Source of the DNA: a virus
Taxonomy: Duplodnaviria; Heunggongvirae; Uroviricota; Caudoviricetes
Strand: one strand, 5' to 3'
Virus record (IMG/VR): IMGVR_UViG_2667527839_000007
Length of the DNA stretch: 4,669 bases
Shown: piece after piece, positions 1 to 4,669 of the stretch
How the letters are laid out: every line of letters starts with the position of its first letter
Position numbering within the stretch: the stretch's first letter is position 1
Position numbers and translations under genes: made by a program
The notes under the pieces: model-generated
Seen by the model: the letters and a program-made list of their open reading frames with translations, nothing else
Databases searched by the model: none
What the model was told of the DNA's origin: nothing

Positions 1-51
1 AAGTCATCGGGCATTATCTGAACATAAAACACTATCAATAAGTTGGAGTCA

Positions 52-207
52 TTACCCTGACGTGCATTGCTCAAGTTTTTTAGCCAGCACAAAACTGGCT
101 TTTTTATAGCCATTGAAAACCAGCCGTAAGTAGCCAGGTGTTGAGCCAACTTTTCCGGCCAACTCGCCCTGCTGTTCTTTGGTTAAAGAGTCCCAATACG
201 CTTTCAT
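52..207 (-). CDS. Cro/YdaS-family small HTH regulator (51 aa), divergent from the CI-like repressor
   Basis: The ORF-track entry 52..510 is a read-through; the internal ATG at 205-207 (minus) is preceded by GGAGGT (plus 217-222) with a 9-nt spacer. Product MKAYWDSLTKEQQGELAGKVGSTPGYLRLVFNGYKKASFVLAKKLEQCTSG has an HTH-like core resembling, from memory, YdaS/Cro-type prophage regulators. Divergent position opposite a CI-like gene. Confidence 0.7.
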   Translation of the reverse strand: MKAYWDSLTKEQQGELAGKVGSTPGYLRLVFNGYKKASFVLAKKLEQCTSG

Positions 208-210
208 ACA

Positions 211-233
211 ATATGTACCTCCTGTGTACATAT
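211..233. promoter_or_regulatory. Operator 1: palindrome ATATGTAC-N7-GTACATAT
   Basis: Perfect 8-bp inverted arms at 211-218 and 226-233, core TGTAC-N7-GTACA. The 7-bp spacer contains the cro Shine-Dalgarno (plus CCTCCT 218-223). Same core as operator 2 and the site at 1018-1036. Confidence 0.55.
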
Positions 234-261
234 TACATGATTGAAATGAACCTTCAAGATA

Positions 262-282
262 CTTGTACCTTAGCGGTACAAG
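262..282. promoter_or_regulatory. Operator 2: palindrome CTTGTACC-N5-GGTACAAG (core TGTAC-N7-GTACA)
   Basis: Perfect 8-bp inverted arms at 262-269 and 275-282, centred about 50 bp from operator 1. Overlaps the candidate -35 of the cI promoter. Confidence 0.55.
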
Positions 283-297
283 GGTTTTAATTTCGTT

Positions 298-972
298 ATG
301 AAAACAATCCATGACATCCGGCGGTCTAACGCCAGAAAACTGAGAGATGGTGTTGGCGGGAATTCTTCCTTTGCCACTATGATTGATCGCGAGCCAACCC
401 AGACCAGCAGGTTTATGGGAGATGGGGCTACTAAAAATATCGGTGACAGCATGGCACGACACATCGAAAAATGTTTCGACCTGCCTGTCGGATGGCTCGA
501 TCAAGAACACCAGACAACGAACATCACAAAAAAACCTGATGTTTCAATCACTAATAAACAAATCACATTAGTCCCTGTCATATCATGGGTACAGGCCGGA
601 GCATGGAAAGAAGTTGGATATTCTGAGGTTGATTTGAGCACAGCAGAAACGTATCCCTGCCCTGTACCCTGTGGGGAAATGACTTATATCTTGCGGGTGA
701 TAGGTGATTCAATGATTGATGAGTACCGCCCGGGAGACATGATTTTTGTCGATCCTGAAGTACCTGCCTGCCACGGTGACGACGTTATTGCATTGATGCA
801 CGATACAGGCGAAACCACCTTCAAAAGGTTGATAGAAGATGGGACACAGCGTTATCTCAAAGCGTTAAACCCAAACTGGCCTGAGCCTTACATTAAGATC
901 AACGGTAATTGCTCTATAATTGGTACAGTGATTTTCTCCGGAAAACCAAGAAGATACAAAATCAAAGCCTAA
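298..972 (+). CDS. CI-like prophage repressor: N-terminal HTH domain plus C-terminal LexA/S24-type autopeptidase domain (224 aa)
   Basis: C-terminal half aligns by eye with lambda CI: VQAG cleavage-site motif (Ala100-Gly101, nt 595-600), GDSM with Ser138 (nt 709-711), TFKRL with Lys176 (nt 823-825), and the LNPNWPEP / GTVIFSG region. N-terminal about 70 aa is HTH-like. Divergent to the cro-like gene and followed by a strong terminator. Confidence 0.88.
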   Translation: MKTIHDIRRSNARKLRDGVGGNSSFATMIDREPTQTSRFMGDGATKNIGDSMARHIEKCFDLPVGWLDQEHQTTNITKKPDVSITNKQITLVPVISWVQAGAWKEVGYSEVDLSTAETYPCPVPCGEMTYILRVIGDSMIDEYRPGDMIFVDPEVPACHGDDVIALMHDTGETTFKRLIEDGTQRYLKALNPNWPEPYIKINGNCSIIGTVIFSGKPRRYKIKA

Positions 973-984
973 TCAATGTTTATG

Positions 985-1007
985 AACCTGCTTCGGCAGG
1001 TTTTTTT
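985..1007 (+). terminator. Rho-independent terminator of the repressor gene
   Basis: 7-bp stem AACCTGC/GCAGGTT with TTCG tetraloop followed by a run of 7 T (1001-1007), 13 nt after the stop codon at 970-972. The opposite strand has no T-run, so it is unidirectional. Confidence 0.8.
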
Positions 1008-1011
1008 ATAC

Positions 1012-1039
1012 TTGACAATGTACCTTTGAGATACATAAT
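1012..1039 (+). promoter_or_regulatory. PL-like early-left promoter (TTGACA-N16-CATAAT)
   Basis: Consensus -35 TTGACA at 1012-1017, a 16-bp spacer, and -10 CATAAT at 1034-1039 (5/6 match). Sits directly after the cI terminator, faces away from cI, and is overlapped by an operator-like site. Confidence 0.55.
1018..1036. promoter_or_regulatory. Operator-like site OL: ATGTAC-N7-ATACAT (one mismatch to the OR palindrome)
   Basis: TGTAC (1019-1023) N7 ATACA (1031-1035), inside the spacer and -10 of the PL-like promoter. A further TGTACC half-site lies at 1039-1044. Confidence 0.45.
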
Positions 1040-1216
1040 GTACCCAACCGAAACAACGAACAGGCAGGACGCCCACGAAGTAGCCGCCTAGGGCATATGA
1101 AGTCCAGGATGATTCGTTGAGTCATGTTGTGCCACCAGGCAATCATGTTAAAGCAGGTGTATGAAATGAAAGTCCAGATTTTAAACAATAACTGTGAAGT
1201 CGTTTGGGCGTAAAAC

Positions 1217-1423
1217 ATGACCGCGCGTAGACCAAGGGAGGAAAAAGTGGGAATAGTTAGAAATCAAGCAGATATATTGAAAATCAGCTCTGAATTACTT
1301 GGAGTTTTGAAAAGTGAGCTCACCGCACATGGCATCGAGCCCACTGACGAAAACTTAAGTTGGGTTTTGTCGATTATTCAACAATCACTCAAGCCCAGCC
1401 TCAGCAAACTTTTTATCGAGTAG
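1217..1423 (+). CDS. Hypothetical small protein, first ORF downstream of the PL-like promoter (68 aa from ATG 1217; 58 aa if GTG 1247 is used)
   Basis: The open frame has a weak SD before ATG 1217, but a strong AAGGGAGG (1234-1241) sits 5 nt before the in-frame GTG at 1247. N-terminus from 1217 is Arg-rich (MTARRPREEK). No family recognised. Its 3' end overlaps the convergent minus-strand ORF by 39 nt. Confidence 0.4.
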   Translation: MTARRPREEKVGIVRNQADILKISSELLGVLKSELTAHGIEPTDENLSWVLSIIQQSLKPSLSKLFIE

Positions 1424-1576
1424 TGCTTCGAACTTATCGTAAAGCTTGCTTATGTCGTCTATCGGGTTTTCTGACGTACTGTAATTTTTATCTGATGTCA
1501 TGGCAGCAGTCTGATATGCAGTGTGAGTCTTAACCGATAGTTGGAATAAATAAAGAATTTTTTCTTCTTTGGTCAT
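1385..1576 (-). CDS. Hypothetical small protein (63 aa), antisense to the early-left direction
   Basis: ATG at 1574-1576 (minus) preceded by AAGGAAAT (plus 1581-1588 complement) with a 5-nt spacer. Product MTKEEKILYLFQLSVKTHTAYQ...KKFAEAGLE is charged and likely helical. The longer ORF-track version (1385..1618) would start at GTG without an SD. No family recognised. Confidence 0.45.
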   Translation of the reverse strand: MTKEEKILYLFQLSVKTHTAYQTAAMTSDKNYSTSENPIDDISKLYDKFEALLDKKFAEAGLE

Positions 1577-1608
1577 AACTATTTCCTTCTTGGCTATATG
1601 AAAACACC

Positions 1609-1637
1609 AAGATACCACCGAGCCTGAAGTGGTGAAA
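1609..1637 (-). promoter_or_regulatory. Candidate promoter for the minus-strand small ORF (extended -10 TGnTATCTT)
   Basis: Minus strand reads TGGTATCTT (plus 1609-1617), about 25 nt upstream of the SD, with a weak -35-like TTCACC 16 nt further upstream. By eye only. Confidence 0.25.
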
Positions 1638-1837
1638 AGACAGGCACATAACAGCTAAGTATTTTCAACCAAAGAGAATCCTTAGCGTTGTGGTGAATGC
1701 GGCTCAGCGCACGCGGGTTAAGGTTGAGGCTGACAGTCGACCTTCTGTGGATACCCACCCGTCTGGTGTGCAACCTTCGCCAGGCACCGGGAGGCACCCG
1801 GCACCCGGCACCACAACTTTATGCTGTGTGTAGTCCT

Positions 1838-1884
1838 GGCGGTACCAGTTTGTACCCTTGCTTCCGGCTGGTACCGTCCTTTTT
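1838..1884 (+). terminator. Hairpin plus T5: candidate tL1-like terminator or attenuator upstream of the yfdP-like gene
   Basis: 9 perfect base pairs (1840-1848 CGGTACCAG with 1868-1876 CTGGTACCG), extendable to 11 with a G-U pair, a 19-nt loop, then TTTTT at 1880-1884. The loop is larger than in canonical terminators, so confidence is low. Confidence 0.35.
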
Positions 1885-2021
1885 ACAAAACAGAGAAGAG
1901 CATCACCGGACGACGGGCTCATAACCCAATCCATCCGGGCGGCTGCCACCGCAGGTGTTCTTCTCTGTTTTGTGGAGAAACTAATCGGCCTTGCAGGGTC
2001 GATATGATGAGGAGCAGCAAA

Positions 2022-2384
2022 ATGGCTAGCGAACGCAGTACTGATGTGCAGGCATTTATCGGGGAGCTGGACGGCGGCGTATTTGAAACCAAAATCGGCG
2101 CAGTTCTCAGTGAAGTCGCTTCCGGTGTGATGAACACGAAAACCAAAGGTAAGGTCTCACTCAACCTGGAAATCGAACCATTTGATGAGAACCGTGTGAA
2201 AATCAAACACAAACTCTCATATGTTCGCCCGACTAACCGCGGGAAAATTTCCGAAGAAGACACCACCGAAACGCCGATGTATGTCAATCGCGGTGGTCGC
2301 CTGACTATTCTGCAGGAAGACCAGGGACAGTTACTGACTCTTGCCGGTGAACCTGACGGAAAACTCCGCGCAGCAGGTCGTTAA
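2022..2384 (+). CDS. yfdP: YfdP-like prophage protein of unknown function (120 aa)
   Basis: ATG 2022 preceded by GAGGAG (2009-2014) with a 7-nt spacer. The ORF-track frame is open from 1821 but has no SD there. The 120-aa length and position at the head of a 120/274/178/120/101-aa gene series match my recollection of yfdP-yfdT in E. coli K-12 CPS-53; the symbol is assigned by synteny and length, not by alignment. Confidence 0.7.
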   Translation: MASERSTDVQAFIGELDGGVFETKIGAVLSEVASGVMNTKTKGKVSLNLEIEPFDENRVKIKHKLSYVRPTNRGKISEEDTTETPMYVNRGGRLTILQEDQGQLLTLAGEPDGKLRAAGR

Positions 2385-2449
2385 TATCGTTTTTAATTAA
2401 CTGATTATTTATCTCATCACTGAATATCTTTATATAGTGAGGACTTATT

Positions 2450-3274
2450 ATGTCTCAGAACTTAGACGCAACCGCAATTAATCAAATCCATGCCCTTATT
2501 TCTGCTCAGGGTGTTAATGAAATTATCAGTAAGATTGGTGCCGATGCTGTGGCATTGCCTGAGAATTTCCGCATTCATGATCTGGAAAAATTTAATTTAA
2601 ATCGCTTCCGTTTCCGTGGTGCGCTTTCCACTGCCAGCATCGATGACTTTACCCGTTATTCTAAAGATCTTGCAGATGAAGGCACCCGCTGCTTTATCGA
2701 TGCTGATAATATGCGTGCCGTCAGTGTGCTTAACCTGGGTACTATTGATGAACCAGGTCACGCAGATAACACCGCCACTCTCAAACTGAAAAAGACAGCA
2801 CCGTTCTCTGCTCTGTTGTCTGTTAACGGCGAGCGTAACTCCCAGAAGTCACTGGCAGAATGGATTGAAGACTGGGCCGACTACCTTGTGGGCTTTGATG
2901 CTAATGGTGACGCCATTCAGGCAACAAAAGCGGCTGCGGCAGTCCGTAAAATCACAATTGAAGCGAACCAGACTGCTGATTTTGAAGACAATGACTTCAG
3001 CGGCAAACGCTCCCTGATGGAGTCTGTCGAAGCGAAGACCAAAGACATTATGCCAGTGGCATTTGAATTTAAATGCGTTCCGTTTGAAGGCCTGAAAGAA
3101 CGTCCATTTAAATTACGACCCAGCATTATCACTGGCGATCGTCCTGTACTGGTTCTGCGCATTATTCAGCTGGAAGCGGTGCAGGAAGATATGGCTAACG
3201 AATTTCGTGATCTGCTTGTTGAGAAATTCAAAGACAGCAAAGTAGAAACCTTTATTGGTACTTTCACCGCCTGA
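2450..3274 (+). CDS. yfdQ: YfdQ-like prophage protein (274 aa; DUF2303-type as recalled)
   Basis: ATG 2450 with GAGG (2439-2442) and a 7-nt spacer. Long clean ORF of 274 aa, the same length as K-12 YfdQ as I recall it, sitting directly upstream of the HD-domain gene. Confidence 0.8.
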
Positions 3275-3286
3275 TTTCATTACTGC

Positions 3287-3308
3287 AAATGCCCCTGCGG
3301 GGGCATTT
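3287..3308. terminator. Inter-cistronic hairpin after the yfdQ-like gene (possible weak terminator, attenuator or processing site)
   Basis: AAATGCCCC (3287-3295), loop TGCG, GGGGCATTT (3300-3308): a perfect 9-bp stem 13 nt after the stop. It is followed by AT rather than a clean T-run, so intrinsic termination is uncertain. Confidence 0.35.
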
Positions 3309-3401
3309 ATGGAAACGTAATTAACTCAATAATCACCGGATGGTGAGGGCTTCCTTTTACCCAAACTCAGCGCGGTGCAGCGCATATACGTGGAGAACAA
3401 A

Positions 3402-3938
3402 ATGTCATTTATTAAAACTTTTTCCGGGAAGCATTTTTATTATGACAGGATAAATAAAGACGACATCGTGATTAACGATATCGCGGTTTCCCTTTCAAAT
3501 ATCTGCCGCTTTGCCGGTCATCTTTCTCACTTCTACAGTGTCGCCCAACATGCGGTGCTTTGCAGCCAGCTGGTGCCGCAGGAATTTGCTTTTGAAGCGT
3601 TAATGCATGATGCAACAGAAGCGTATTGCCAGGACATCCCCGCACCACTGAAACGCCTTCTTCCTGACTATAAACGGATGGAAGAAAAAATAGATGCAGT
3701 AATCCGTGAGAAATACGGGTTACCTCCTGTTATGAGCACGCCAGTGAAATATGCCGATCTCATTATGCTGGCAACCGAACGCCGTGATCTCGGGCTTGAT
3801 GATGGCTCTTTCTGGCCTGTACTGGAAGGCATCCCGGCAACAGAGATGTTCAACGTGATTCCACTGGCACCGGGTCATGCCTACGGGATGTTTATGGAAC
3901 GTTTTAACGATTTATCGGAGTTACGCAAATGCGCATGA
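3402..3938 (+). CDS. yfdR: HD-domain phosphohydrolase, YfdR-like (putative 5'-deoxynucleotidase family; 178 aa)
   Basis: ATG 3402 with GGAG (3392-3395) and a 6-nt spacer; the ORF-track start at 3375 is a GTG without an SD. HD-domain metal-binding pattern is visible: His50 (VAQHAV), His69-Asp70 (LMHDATEA), and downstream Asp residues. Length of 178 aa matches K-12 YfdR as recalled. Confidence 0.85.
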   Translation: MSFIKTFSGKHFYYDRINKDDIVINDIAVSLSNICRFAGHLSHFYSVAQHAVLCSQLVPQEFAFEALMHDATEAYCQDIPAPLKRLLPDYKRMEEKIDAVIREKYGLPPVMSTPVKYADLIMLATERRDLGLDDGSFWPVLEGIPATEMFNVIPLAPGHAYGMFMERFNDLSELRKCA

Positions 3939-4291
3939 ATGTTTTCGAAATGGAAGGGTTTCTTCGCGGGAAATGTGTACCGCGAGATCTGAAAGTGAAC
4001 GAAACAAATGCTGAGTACCTGGTACGTAAATTCGACGCGCTTGAAGCTAAATGTGCGGCACTGGAAAACAAAATAATACCAGTGTCAGCTGAACTGCCAC
4101 CAGCAAATGAAAGTGTTCTGTTATTTGATGCTAATGGAGAAGGCTGGCTGATTGGCTGGCGTTCTCTCTGGTACACCTGGGGACAAAAAGAAACCGGAGA
4201 ATGGCAGTGGACATTTCAGGTTGGGGACCTTGAAAACGTCAATATCACTCACTGGGCAGTTATGCCAAAAGCACCGGAGGCTGGAGCATAA
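3929..4291 (+). CDS. yfdS: YfdS-like prophage protein (120 aa; C-terminal DUF551-like motif)
   Basis: ATG 3929 overlaps the yfdR-like 3' end by 10 nt. The C-terminus (NITHWAVMPKAPE) resembles the conserved ending of phage DUF551 proteins as I recall it. Length matches K-12 YfdS. Confidence 0.75.
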   Translation: MRMNVFEMEGFLRGKCVPRDLKVNETNAEYLVRKFDALEAKCAALENKIIPVSAELPPANESVLLFDANGEGWLIGWRSLWYTWGQKETGEWQWTFQVGDLENVNITHWAVMPKAPEAGA

Positions 4292-4596
4292 TGACCACAT
4301 TTACCAATAAAGAACTGATTAAAGAAATCAAAGAACGAATCAGCAGCCTAGAGGTTCGAGACGATATTGAGCGCCGTGCTTATGAAATCGCACTCGTATC
4401 TCTGGAAGTAGAGCCAGATGAACGCGAAGCCTATGAATTATTCATGGAAAAGCGTTTCGGTGACTTAGTAGATCGTCGGAGAGCAAAAAACGGCGATAAC
4501 GAATACATGGCATGGGATATGACTCTCGGTTGGATCGTCTGGCAGCAACGAGCTGGTATCCATTTTTCAACAATGTCACAGCAAGAGGTGAAATAA
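4291..4596 (+). CDS. yfdT: YfdT-like small prophage protein (101 aa)
   Basis: ATG 4291 overlaps the upstream stop in a TAATG junction (translational coupling). Acidic, helical-looking product. Length matches K-12 YfdT as recalled. Confidence 0.75.
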   Translation: MTTFTNKELIKEIKERISSLEVRDDIERRAYEIALVSLEVEPDEREAYELFMEKRFGDLVDRRRAKNGDNEYMAWDMTLGWIVWQQRAGIHFSTMSQQEVK

Positions 4597-4669
4597 TGGA
4601 GCCATACAGCCTGAACCGCCCCGGGTTTCCTGGAGAGTGTTTTATCTGTGAACTCAGGCTGCCAGATCA
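4596..4669 (+). CDS. 5' end of a further small ORF (partial; at least 24 codons, contains CFIC)
   Basis: ATG 4596 in a TAATG junction with the yfdT-like stop, with GAGG (4586-4589) 6 nt upstream. Reads MEPYSLNRPGFPGECFICELRLPD and runs off the window end. Confidence 0.4.
   Translation, partial: MEPYSLNRPGFPGECFICELRLPD

Follow-up and report, generated by a model that had tools for sequence, protein, structure and literature searches.

A K-12-type yfdP-yfdQ-yfdR-yfdS-yfdT block in an insertion-sequence-bounded, SfV-like prophage remnant of Escherichia coli

The yfdQRST cluster of the prophage CPS-53 (KpLE1) of Escherichia coli K-12 has been reported to affect, in multicopy, the initiation of chromosomal replication. 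Noguchi and Katayama (2016; PMC4776307) reported, for the K-12 alleles, that multicopy yfdQR together with either yfdS or yfdT inhibits initiation at oriC in the wild type and in several mutant backgrounds. The minimal set for suppression of hda-185 consists of yfdQ plus yfdR, with one of the genes yfdS and yfdT in addition, while yfdP is dispensable. In the same work, carried out under overexpression, YfdR was shown to bind domain I of the initiator DnaA directly and in a Phe46-dependent manner. Here we describe a counterpart of this cluster in a stretch of 4,669 nucleotides (nt), called the window below, which is listed in IMG/VR as virus record IMGVR_UViG_2667527839_000007. An initial annotation of the window, made from its sequence, had likened four of its genes to yfdQRST and had cited the 2016 paper for inhibition of initiation and binding of DnaA by YfdR, which is indeed what PMC4776307 contains.

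DiaA and DnaB bind through the same Phe46 surface as YfdR, and for SirA the equivalent residue is Phe49 (PMC4776307). YfdR has also been cited as competing with DnaB for domain I of DnaA (eLife 2025, PMC12122000), and later papers, including this one, restate the YfdR-DnaA result with no new mechanism. The passages of PMC4776307 that deal with nucleotides describe YfdR, citing Zimmerman 2008, as a structural homolog of YfbR with deoxynucleoside monophosphate (dNMP) phosphatase activity, and report a nucleotide affinity much below that of YfbR.

The block and its K-12 counterpart

The window is a 100% match to the chromosome of E. coli strain 81 (NZ_CP088131.1, positions 3719171–3723839). Four co-oriented genes on the + strand occupy positions 2450–4596 and encode proteins of 274, 178, 120 and 101 residues, as initially described, and the RefSeq annotation of the strain 81 record gives them the same coordinates as the listing of open reading frames (ORFs). 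The first, yfdQ (2450..3274), encodes a DUF2303 protein (PF10065, 7e-91) with 99.3% identity to K-12 YfdQ. It is followed by yfdR (3402..3938), coding for an HD-domain phosphohydrolase (phrog_318, 2e-109) with 99.4% identity to K-12 YfdR, from which it differs by the single substitution K16R; the length of 178 residues is counted from the ATG at 3402, while the longest ORF opens at a GTG at 3375. The product of yfdS (3929..4291), which combines an Ea22-like N-terminal segment with DUF551, is 100% identical to K-12 YfdS, and that of yfdT (4291..4596), with an N-terminus common to EaA-type genes, is 99.0% identical to K-12 YfdT. These identities, together with the same order and spacing, bear out the proposed match to the K-12 cluster. 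Among the domain assignments suggested along with it, DUF2303 is clear and DUF551 falls right at the cut-off, and YfdR does contain the HD motif.

The block begins upstream of yfdQ, with yfdP (2022..2384, + strand, 120 residues, 98.3% identical to K-12 YfdP). The initial annotation had omitted this gene, the conserved upstream partner of yfdQ, from a module that otherwise contains the genes it named. Homology to K-12 spans window positions 2003–4612, a colinear segment of 2,610 bp with 98.9% DNA identity, and a Shine-Dalgarno-like motif precedes each gene of the block. The genes had been called tightly coupled, which is true of yfdR and yfdS, overlapping by 10 nt, and of yfdS and yfdT, overlapping by 1 nt (ATGA), but not of yfdQ and yfdR, which are separated by 127 nt. 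This spacer contains a GC-rich hairpin with a 9-bp stem (3287–3308, + strand), read directly from the sequence. The gap and both overlaps are of equal length in K-12 and in the window.

The block at 2022–4596 is an allele of the yfdP-yfdQ-yfdR-yfdS-yfdT set of lambdoid SfV-like prophages, as found in CPS-53. Two places in NZ_CP088131.1 match a yfdQRST query, and strain 81 probably carries a second copy.

Of 5,426 complete E. coli genomes, 1,896 contain at least 80% of the region 2450–4596 and 3,038 contain at least a portion of it; the block is also carried by the viable phages SfV, SfIV, mEp460, cdtI, PhiR29 and Kati and by Stx2c-converting phages. It ranks with the most frequent cargo of E. 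coli prophages, present in about one third of complete genomes, and its presence has little weight as a discovery; the genes and their K-12 counterparts, their place in phages of the SfV type and the binding of DnaA have all been published already. The window does, however, keep the upstream control region (the CI repressor, operators, a candidate PL promoter and a structured leader) that was lost from K-12, and such strains and phages are therefore the right material for following the natural timing of block expression.

The best explanation of the locus, which we consider very probable, is a K-12-type block in a remnant bounded by insertion sequences (IS), which would be controlled by CI and PL, with YfdR as a putative brake on initiation in the host. 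The route of expression and the physiological role that we infer would be as follows. CI would be lost through RecA-stimulated self-cleavage by its S24 domain, whereupon transcripts from PL would express the block if they pass a terminator-like hairpin at 1838–1887. YfdR would then bind DnaA domain I and lower host initiation, as published for the K-12 proteins, YfdQ and either YfdS or YfdT would assist this effect, and the conserved HD site of YfdR would meanwhile hydrolyze dNMPs. Expression in the remnant would thus remain under CI and PL and hence be inducible by DNA damage, again if transcripts pass 1838–1887.

Control region and edges of the remnant

The locus is what is left of an SfV-like prophage at the thrW tRNA site, a decayed remnant flanked by IS1 and IS3. 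Its left edge is the end part of IS1 (1..55), in which the coding sequence of the IS1A transposase stops at 41; other genomes align only from 56. The right edge is formed by an IS3-family element, the end of which occupies 4613..4669; its transposase coding sequence begins at 4654, and homology to other genomes ends at 4612. The IS3 insertion lies 16 nt past the yfdT stop codon, at the site of the xis start in relatives; in strain M8 an xis-like gene begins at the yfdT stop. The remnant adjoins an integrase gene, tRNA-Thr and proA in strain 81, and the same layout is seen in strain M8, where the thrW site is occupied by an apparently intact prophage of the same type with a full-length cro (ymfT, 201 nt) and with replication, lysis and terminase genes. 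Unlike M8 and SfV, the strain 81 remnant has no replication, lysis or structural genes left. The immunity region had been taken for apparently intact, which does not hold: IS1 interrupts cro at 55/56, IS3 at 4613 replaces the start of xis and the lytic genes are gone, so that neither an intact immunity region nor an inducible prophage is present.

Further along the strain 81 chromosome, ~12–20 kb to the left of the window (locus L001, 1–7686), lies a heat-resistance island with yfdX1, yfdX2, hdeD-GI, trx-GI, kefB-GI, psiE-GI, htpX and an S1C protease gene. The yafW/ykfI toxin-antitoxin is encoded on a CP4-6-like island that is also near the remnant, in the same part of the locus, and several IS elements are located between the islands and the remnant.

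The control region begins with the Cro-like repressor gene (52..207, – strand; phrog_35, transcriptional repressor family), whose C-terminus is cut by IS1. It encodes 51 residues versus 66 in SfV and M8, about 16 C-terminal codons having been lost, and homology to SfV begins at position 5015 of the SfV locus L003, in which cro spans 4966..5166. The cI gene (298..972, + strand; annotated as ymfK) is intact and encodes a repressor with a LexA-like S24 self-cleavage domain (Peptidase_S24, 1.5e-26), the translation of which shows the Ala-Gly, GDSM and FKRL motifs; an identical protein (WP_000848748.1) is encoded by the apparently intact prophage of M8. An intrinsic terminator with an 8-bp stem and a T-run follows cI (984..1003, + strand), and SfV has a terminator annotated at the equivalent site.

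Two operator-like palindromes, TGTAC-N7-GTACA, are located between cro and cI (214–230 and 264–280), where SfV annotates a putative operator region. A third, with one mismatch, is found at 1019–1035, inside the spacer of the candidate PL (TTGACA-16-CATAAT, 1012..1039, + strand), which agrees with the consensus at 11 of 12 positions and points toward the block. The motif has three matches in the window compared with 0.09 expected, and none of 200 shuffled sequences reaches three.

The layout is that of a lambdoid early-left region, with an S24-type CI, operators flanking cI and a promoter that faces outward on the same strand as the block. SfV, the intact relative, has the order cro, operators, cI, terminator, orf33, orf32–28, xis and int, and its block is located between cI and xis-int, in agreement with the early-left placement given in the initial annotation. 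Both this placement and the control of PL by CI are supported by the sequence. The accompanying description of the block as PL-driven is plausible in view of the promoter candidate with a CI operator in its spacer, but a terminator-like hairpin is placed between PL and yfdP. In SfV (L003, 3826–4014) and PA2 (L007, 505–692), both block-carrying phages, the C4 antisense RNA and isrK are matched above the gathering score; these RNAs belong to P1/P7-type antirepressor control.

The distance from PL to yfdP is ~1 kb. The first part of this interval is occupied by a mosaic insert (1217..1610), which replaces SfV orf33, has no SfV homology over 1235–1610 and is found in 6 of 78 related loci. Its two ORFs, 1217..1423 (+ strand, 68 residues) and 1385..1576 (– strand, 63 residues), are convergent with a 39-nt overlap and match phrog_15476 and phrog_2605, both PHROGs with no assigned function. 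Between PL and the block, one ORF of this pair (1385..1576) thus runs in the opposite direction.

The second part contains a GC-rich (~0.57) structured element (1665..1887, + strand) resembling the small RNA STnc100, although below the Rfam threshold (RF02076, 30 bits, E 8e-4, gathering score 47); the SfV copy reaches 39.5 bits. Its predicted fold is a multibranch structure of -86.2 kcal/mol (z -2.2), which ends in the terminator-like hairpin at 1838–1887, made of a 13-bp stem (1838–1850/1866–1878) followed by CCTTTTTAC, a U-run. In strain 81 as well as M8, the element bears the Prokaryotic Genome Annotation Pipeline label "frameshifted hypothetical protein", which points to a non-coding RNA mistaken for a pseudogene. 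The element is specific to the SfV type and occurs in 40 of the 78 related loci. A role as a general leader of yfdP was rejected, as phiNP, PA2 and four divergent loci gave no match to it; it is also missing from K-12. Likewise, an antiterminator similar to HK022 put was considered for 1665–1886 and rejected, because Rfam produced no comparable match in the PL/PR region of HK022 and a sensitive blastn comparison revealed no similarity. Among the protein matches of the window no N-like antiterminator protein was recognized. The hairpin is directly followed by an inverted repeat (1885–1973) of 25 nt, 84% complementary, with 39 nt between its arms, which lies just upstream of the ribosome-binding site of yfdP.

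YfdR, the YfdP-YfdQ pair and alternative explanations

The residues His50, His69, Asp70 and Glu73 of YfdR are invariant among 64 YfdR-like sequences with 34–100% identity. The first three had been singled out in the initial annotation, and all three are present in the 178-residue protein. The invariant HD site argues for a retained enzymatic role of YfdR as well. The nearest relative of known structure is Atu1052 (PDB code 2gz4, 1.4e-13). In Pfam, YfdR has only sub-threshold matches to the YfbR-like and HD_3 families (PF12917, 24.2 bits versus a cut-off of 25.9), and it scores 19.9 bits against the NCBIfam YfbR equivalog NF003009, which has a cut-off of 122. Because both scores fall below the cut-offs, YfdR is, judged by its sequence, an HD protein of a separate subfamily and not a YfbR equivalog.

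Several points weigh against a role of the block in holding back initiation. The phenotype needs multicopy genes, deletion of yfdQRST leaves initiation unchanged, and an overexpression artefact is considered possible by the authors themselves (PMC4776307). The hairpin at 1838–1887 separates PL from yfdP, with no antiterminator identified. Moreover, YfdR-like HD proteins are found in 337 phage records, with hosts from Bacillus to Caulobacter, and thus range far beyond YfdQ, found in 184 records; the binding of DnaA may therefore be a secondary feature of an enzyme with a general role in nucleotide metabolism.

These observations lead to the alternative that YfdR is primarily an HD 5′-deoxynucleotidase acting on the nucleotide pool, which would dephosphorylate dNMPs in early phage development, its effect on DnaA being a by-product of overexpression. 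We regard this as possible, if doubtful. The invariance of H50, H69, D70 and E73 over such a range of identities is in line with it, as are the occurrence of homologs in phages of very different hosts, mostly without YfdQ, the annotation of PHROG 318, which YfdR matches, as dNMP phosphatase, and the deletion result with the authors' own caveat. However, the binding of DnaA is direct and Phe46-dependent, an effect on the pool does not explain the additional requirement for yfdQ and yfdS or yfdT, and YfdR scores under the YfbR family cut-offs. The nucleotide activity is compatible with YfdR also holding back initiation, and the two are not exclusive.

YfdQ matches PF10065 (DUF2303) over residues 7–272 with 304.6 bits, the cut-off being 26.6. 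The structure of a homolog has been deposited under the title "YfdQ Protein" (PDB code 9o7m, E 7e-44), with 36 chains of one sequence; no paper describing it was found in a literature search, and judging by this entry the YfdQ family is under active structural study. The AlphaFold models of YfdQ and YfdP (predicted local distance difference test scores of 77.6 and 67.5) gave no informative match in fold libraries that do not contain 9o7m. The partner proteins had been said to have no known biochemical function, which is still the case for YfdP, YfdQ, YfdS and YfdT. A published study likewise gives no known function for YfdQ and YfdP and considers them unlikely to be recombination proteins.

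The range of the pair was surveyed in 162 loci of annotated phages and IMG/VR with YfdQ homologs of as little as 28% identity, the ORFs of which loci were searched with YfdP, YfdQ and YfdR profiles. The sample was seeded with four queries, three of them distant YfdQ proteins, and is not unbiased. Grouping of the YfdQ proteins at 80% identity gave 24 clusters. A YfdP homolog is present in all 24, directly upstream and on the same strand in 22, while a YfdR-like HD protein is encoded within 5 kb in eight and directly downstream of YfdQ only in the three clusters closest to the window. Since YfdP accompanies YfdQ in all 24 clusters and a YfdR-like protein in only 8, the evolutionary core in this sample is yfdP-yfdQ, which yfdR joined only in some lineages and to which yfdS and yfdT were added as mosaic genes. 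The survey suggests that the functional unit is yfdP-yfdQ, with yfdR, yfdS and yfdT as lineage-specific additions. The pair is carried by phages of Escherichia, Citrobacter, Vibrio, Pseudomonas and Xanthomonas. In two IMG/VR loci, strong matches to the RT-15 RNA (RF03018; 166 and 188 bits) are located ~4.5 kb downstream of distant yfdQ homologs (L125, 9489–9679, and L131, 9456–9646).

A more far-reaching picture can be drawn from the survey and the state of the remnant, which has kept an SOS-cleavable CI, operators and PL and has lost its lytic genes. The block would now be a host-retained, DNA-damage-inducible brake on chromosome initiation, built from an obligate yfdP-yfdQ module to which a DnaA-binding YfdR was added in the enterobacterial lineage. 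We consider this picture as a whole unlikely.

Slightly less likely still is that yfdP-yfdQ, with yfdR in some lineages, is an accessory of DNA replication, recombination or repair that fills the slot of the Rec module of other lambdoid phages. In distant phages the pair does lie in early DNA-metabolism regions, beside genes for RecT, an exonuclease, SSB and a DnaQ-like protein, and SfV-type and LLS-type phages have no recognizable Rec module. A yfdQ deletion has been reported in published work to be sensitive to methyl methanesulfonate and H2O2, and the 36 chains of the 9o7m entry are such as are seen in large oligomers.

The two last genes behave differently from the rest of the block. Among IMG/VR loci with near-identical yfdQ, yfdP is present in 78 of 78, and the yfdQ-yfdR spacer and yfdR each in 74 of 74, while the two halves of yfdS are found in 51 and 46 of 74 loci and those of yfdT in 37 and 32. 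According to the nuclear magnetic resonance paper on Ea22, DUF551 is a portable domain that occurs in variants of Ea22 as well as in YfdS. In the window protein, residues 50–117 marginally reach the gathering score of this family (PF04448, 22.2 bits versus 22), and the N-terminal part of yfdS shares 73% DNA identity with the beginning of the Ea22-like gene of HK022. Residues 1–42 of YfdT show 79% identity to the beginning of the EaA protein of phage PA2, and YfdT matches no Pfam family even at E 10. These comparisons indicate that yfdS and yfdT are mosaic, with N-terminal segments common to Ea22-like (HK022) and EaA-like (PA2) genes. Mutual similarity of YfdS and YfdT as the source of their published redundancy is unsupported (BLASTP E 0.33, with YfdT giving no Pfam match at E 10). 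Early-left accessory regions often hold anti-defence or exclusion cargo, and mosaic "ea"-type genes with N-termini common to Ea22 and EaA genes would fit among it, but it is very improbable that the block is anti-defence or superinfection-exclusion cargo, given that no block protein has a match in PADLOC, whose library covers defence rather than anti-defence, that there is no experimental hint, and that the strict conservation of P-Q-R and the spacer in 74 of 74 loci resembles a core function and not swappable cargo.

Comparison with described systems

The closest described system is yfdP-yfdT of K-12 CPS-53 (b2359–b2363), with which the block shares gene order, lengths, spacing and overlaps, the proteins being 98.3–100% identical. 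Nothing to the left of window position 2003 is kept in K-12: the CI repressor is gone together with its operators, as are PL and the STnc100-like element. The K-12 copy is inserted at argW, whereas the window copy is at thrW and is placed between IS1 and IS3.

The region upstream of the block is better represented by Shigella phage SfV, in which the block corresponds to orf32–orf28. DNA identity to SfV is ~97% over window positions 56–1234 and 1611–4612, and the two have in common the succession of cro, cI, terminator, block, xis and int as well as a thrW-type integrase context. SfV differs in being a complete, viable phage and in having orf33 in place of the window insert at 1235–1610, while in the window IS elements interrupt both cro and xis.

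As an enzyme, YfdR is comparable to the HD 5′-deoxynucleotidase YfbR of E. coli, since both possess the H...HD metal-binding motif. The two differ in that YfdR lies below both YfbR family cut-offs and that its nearest solved relative is 2gz4 and not YfbR. No binding of DnaA is known for YfbR.

As a DnaA binder, YfdR resembles the domain I ligands DiaA, Dps and Bacillus subtilis SirA, which also bind the initiator protein and change initiation. These proteins have no sequence relationship to YfdR, which, unlike them, is an HD-fold enzyme and needs YfdQ and one of the two proteins YfdS and YfdT in vivo. Similarly, the P protein of phage lambda binds DnaA and alters initiation, but it is likewise unrelated to YfdR in sequence, and it targets domain III, while YfdR binds domain I.

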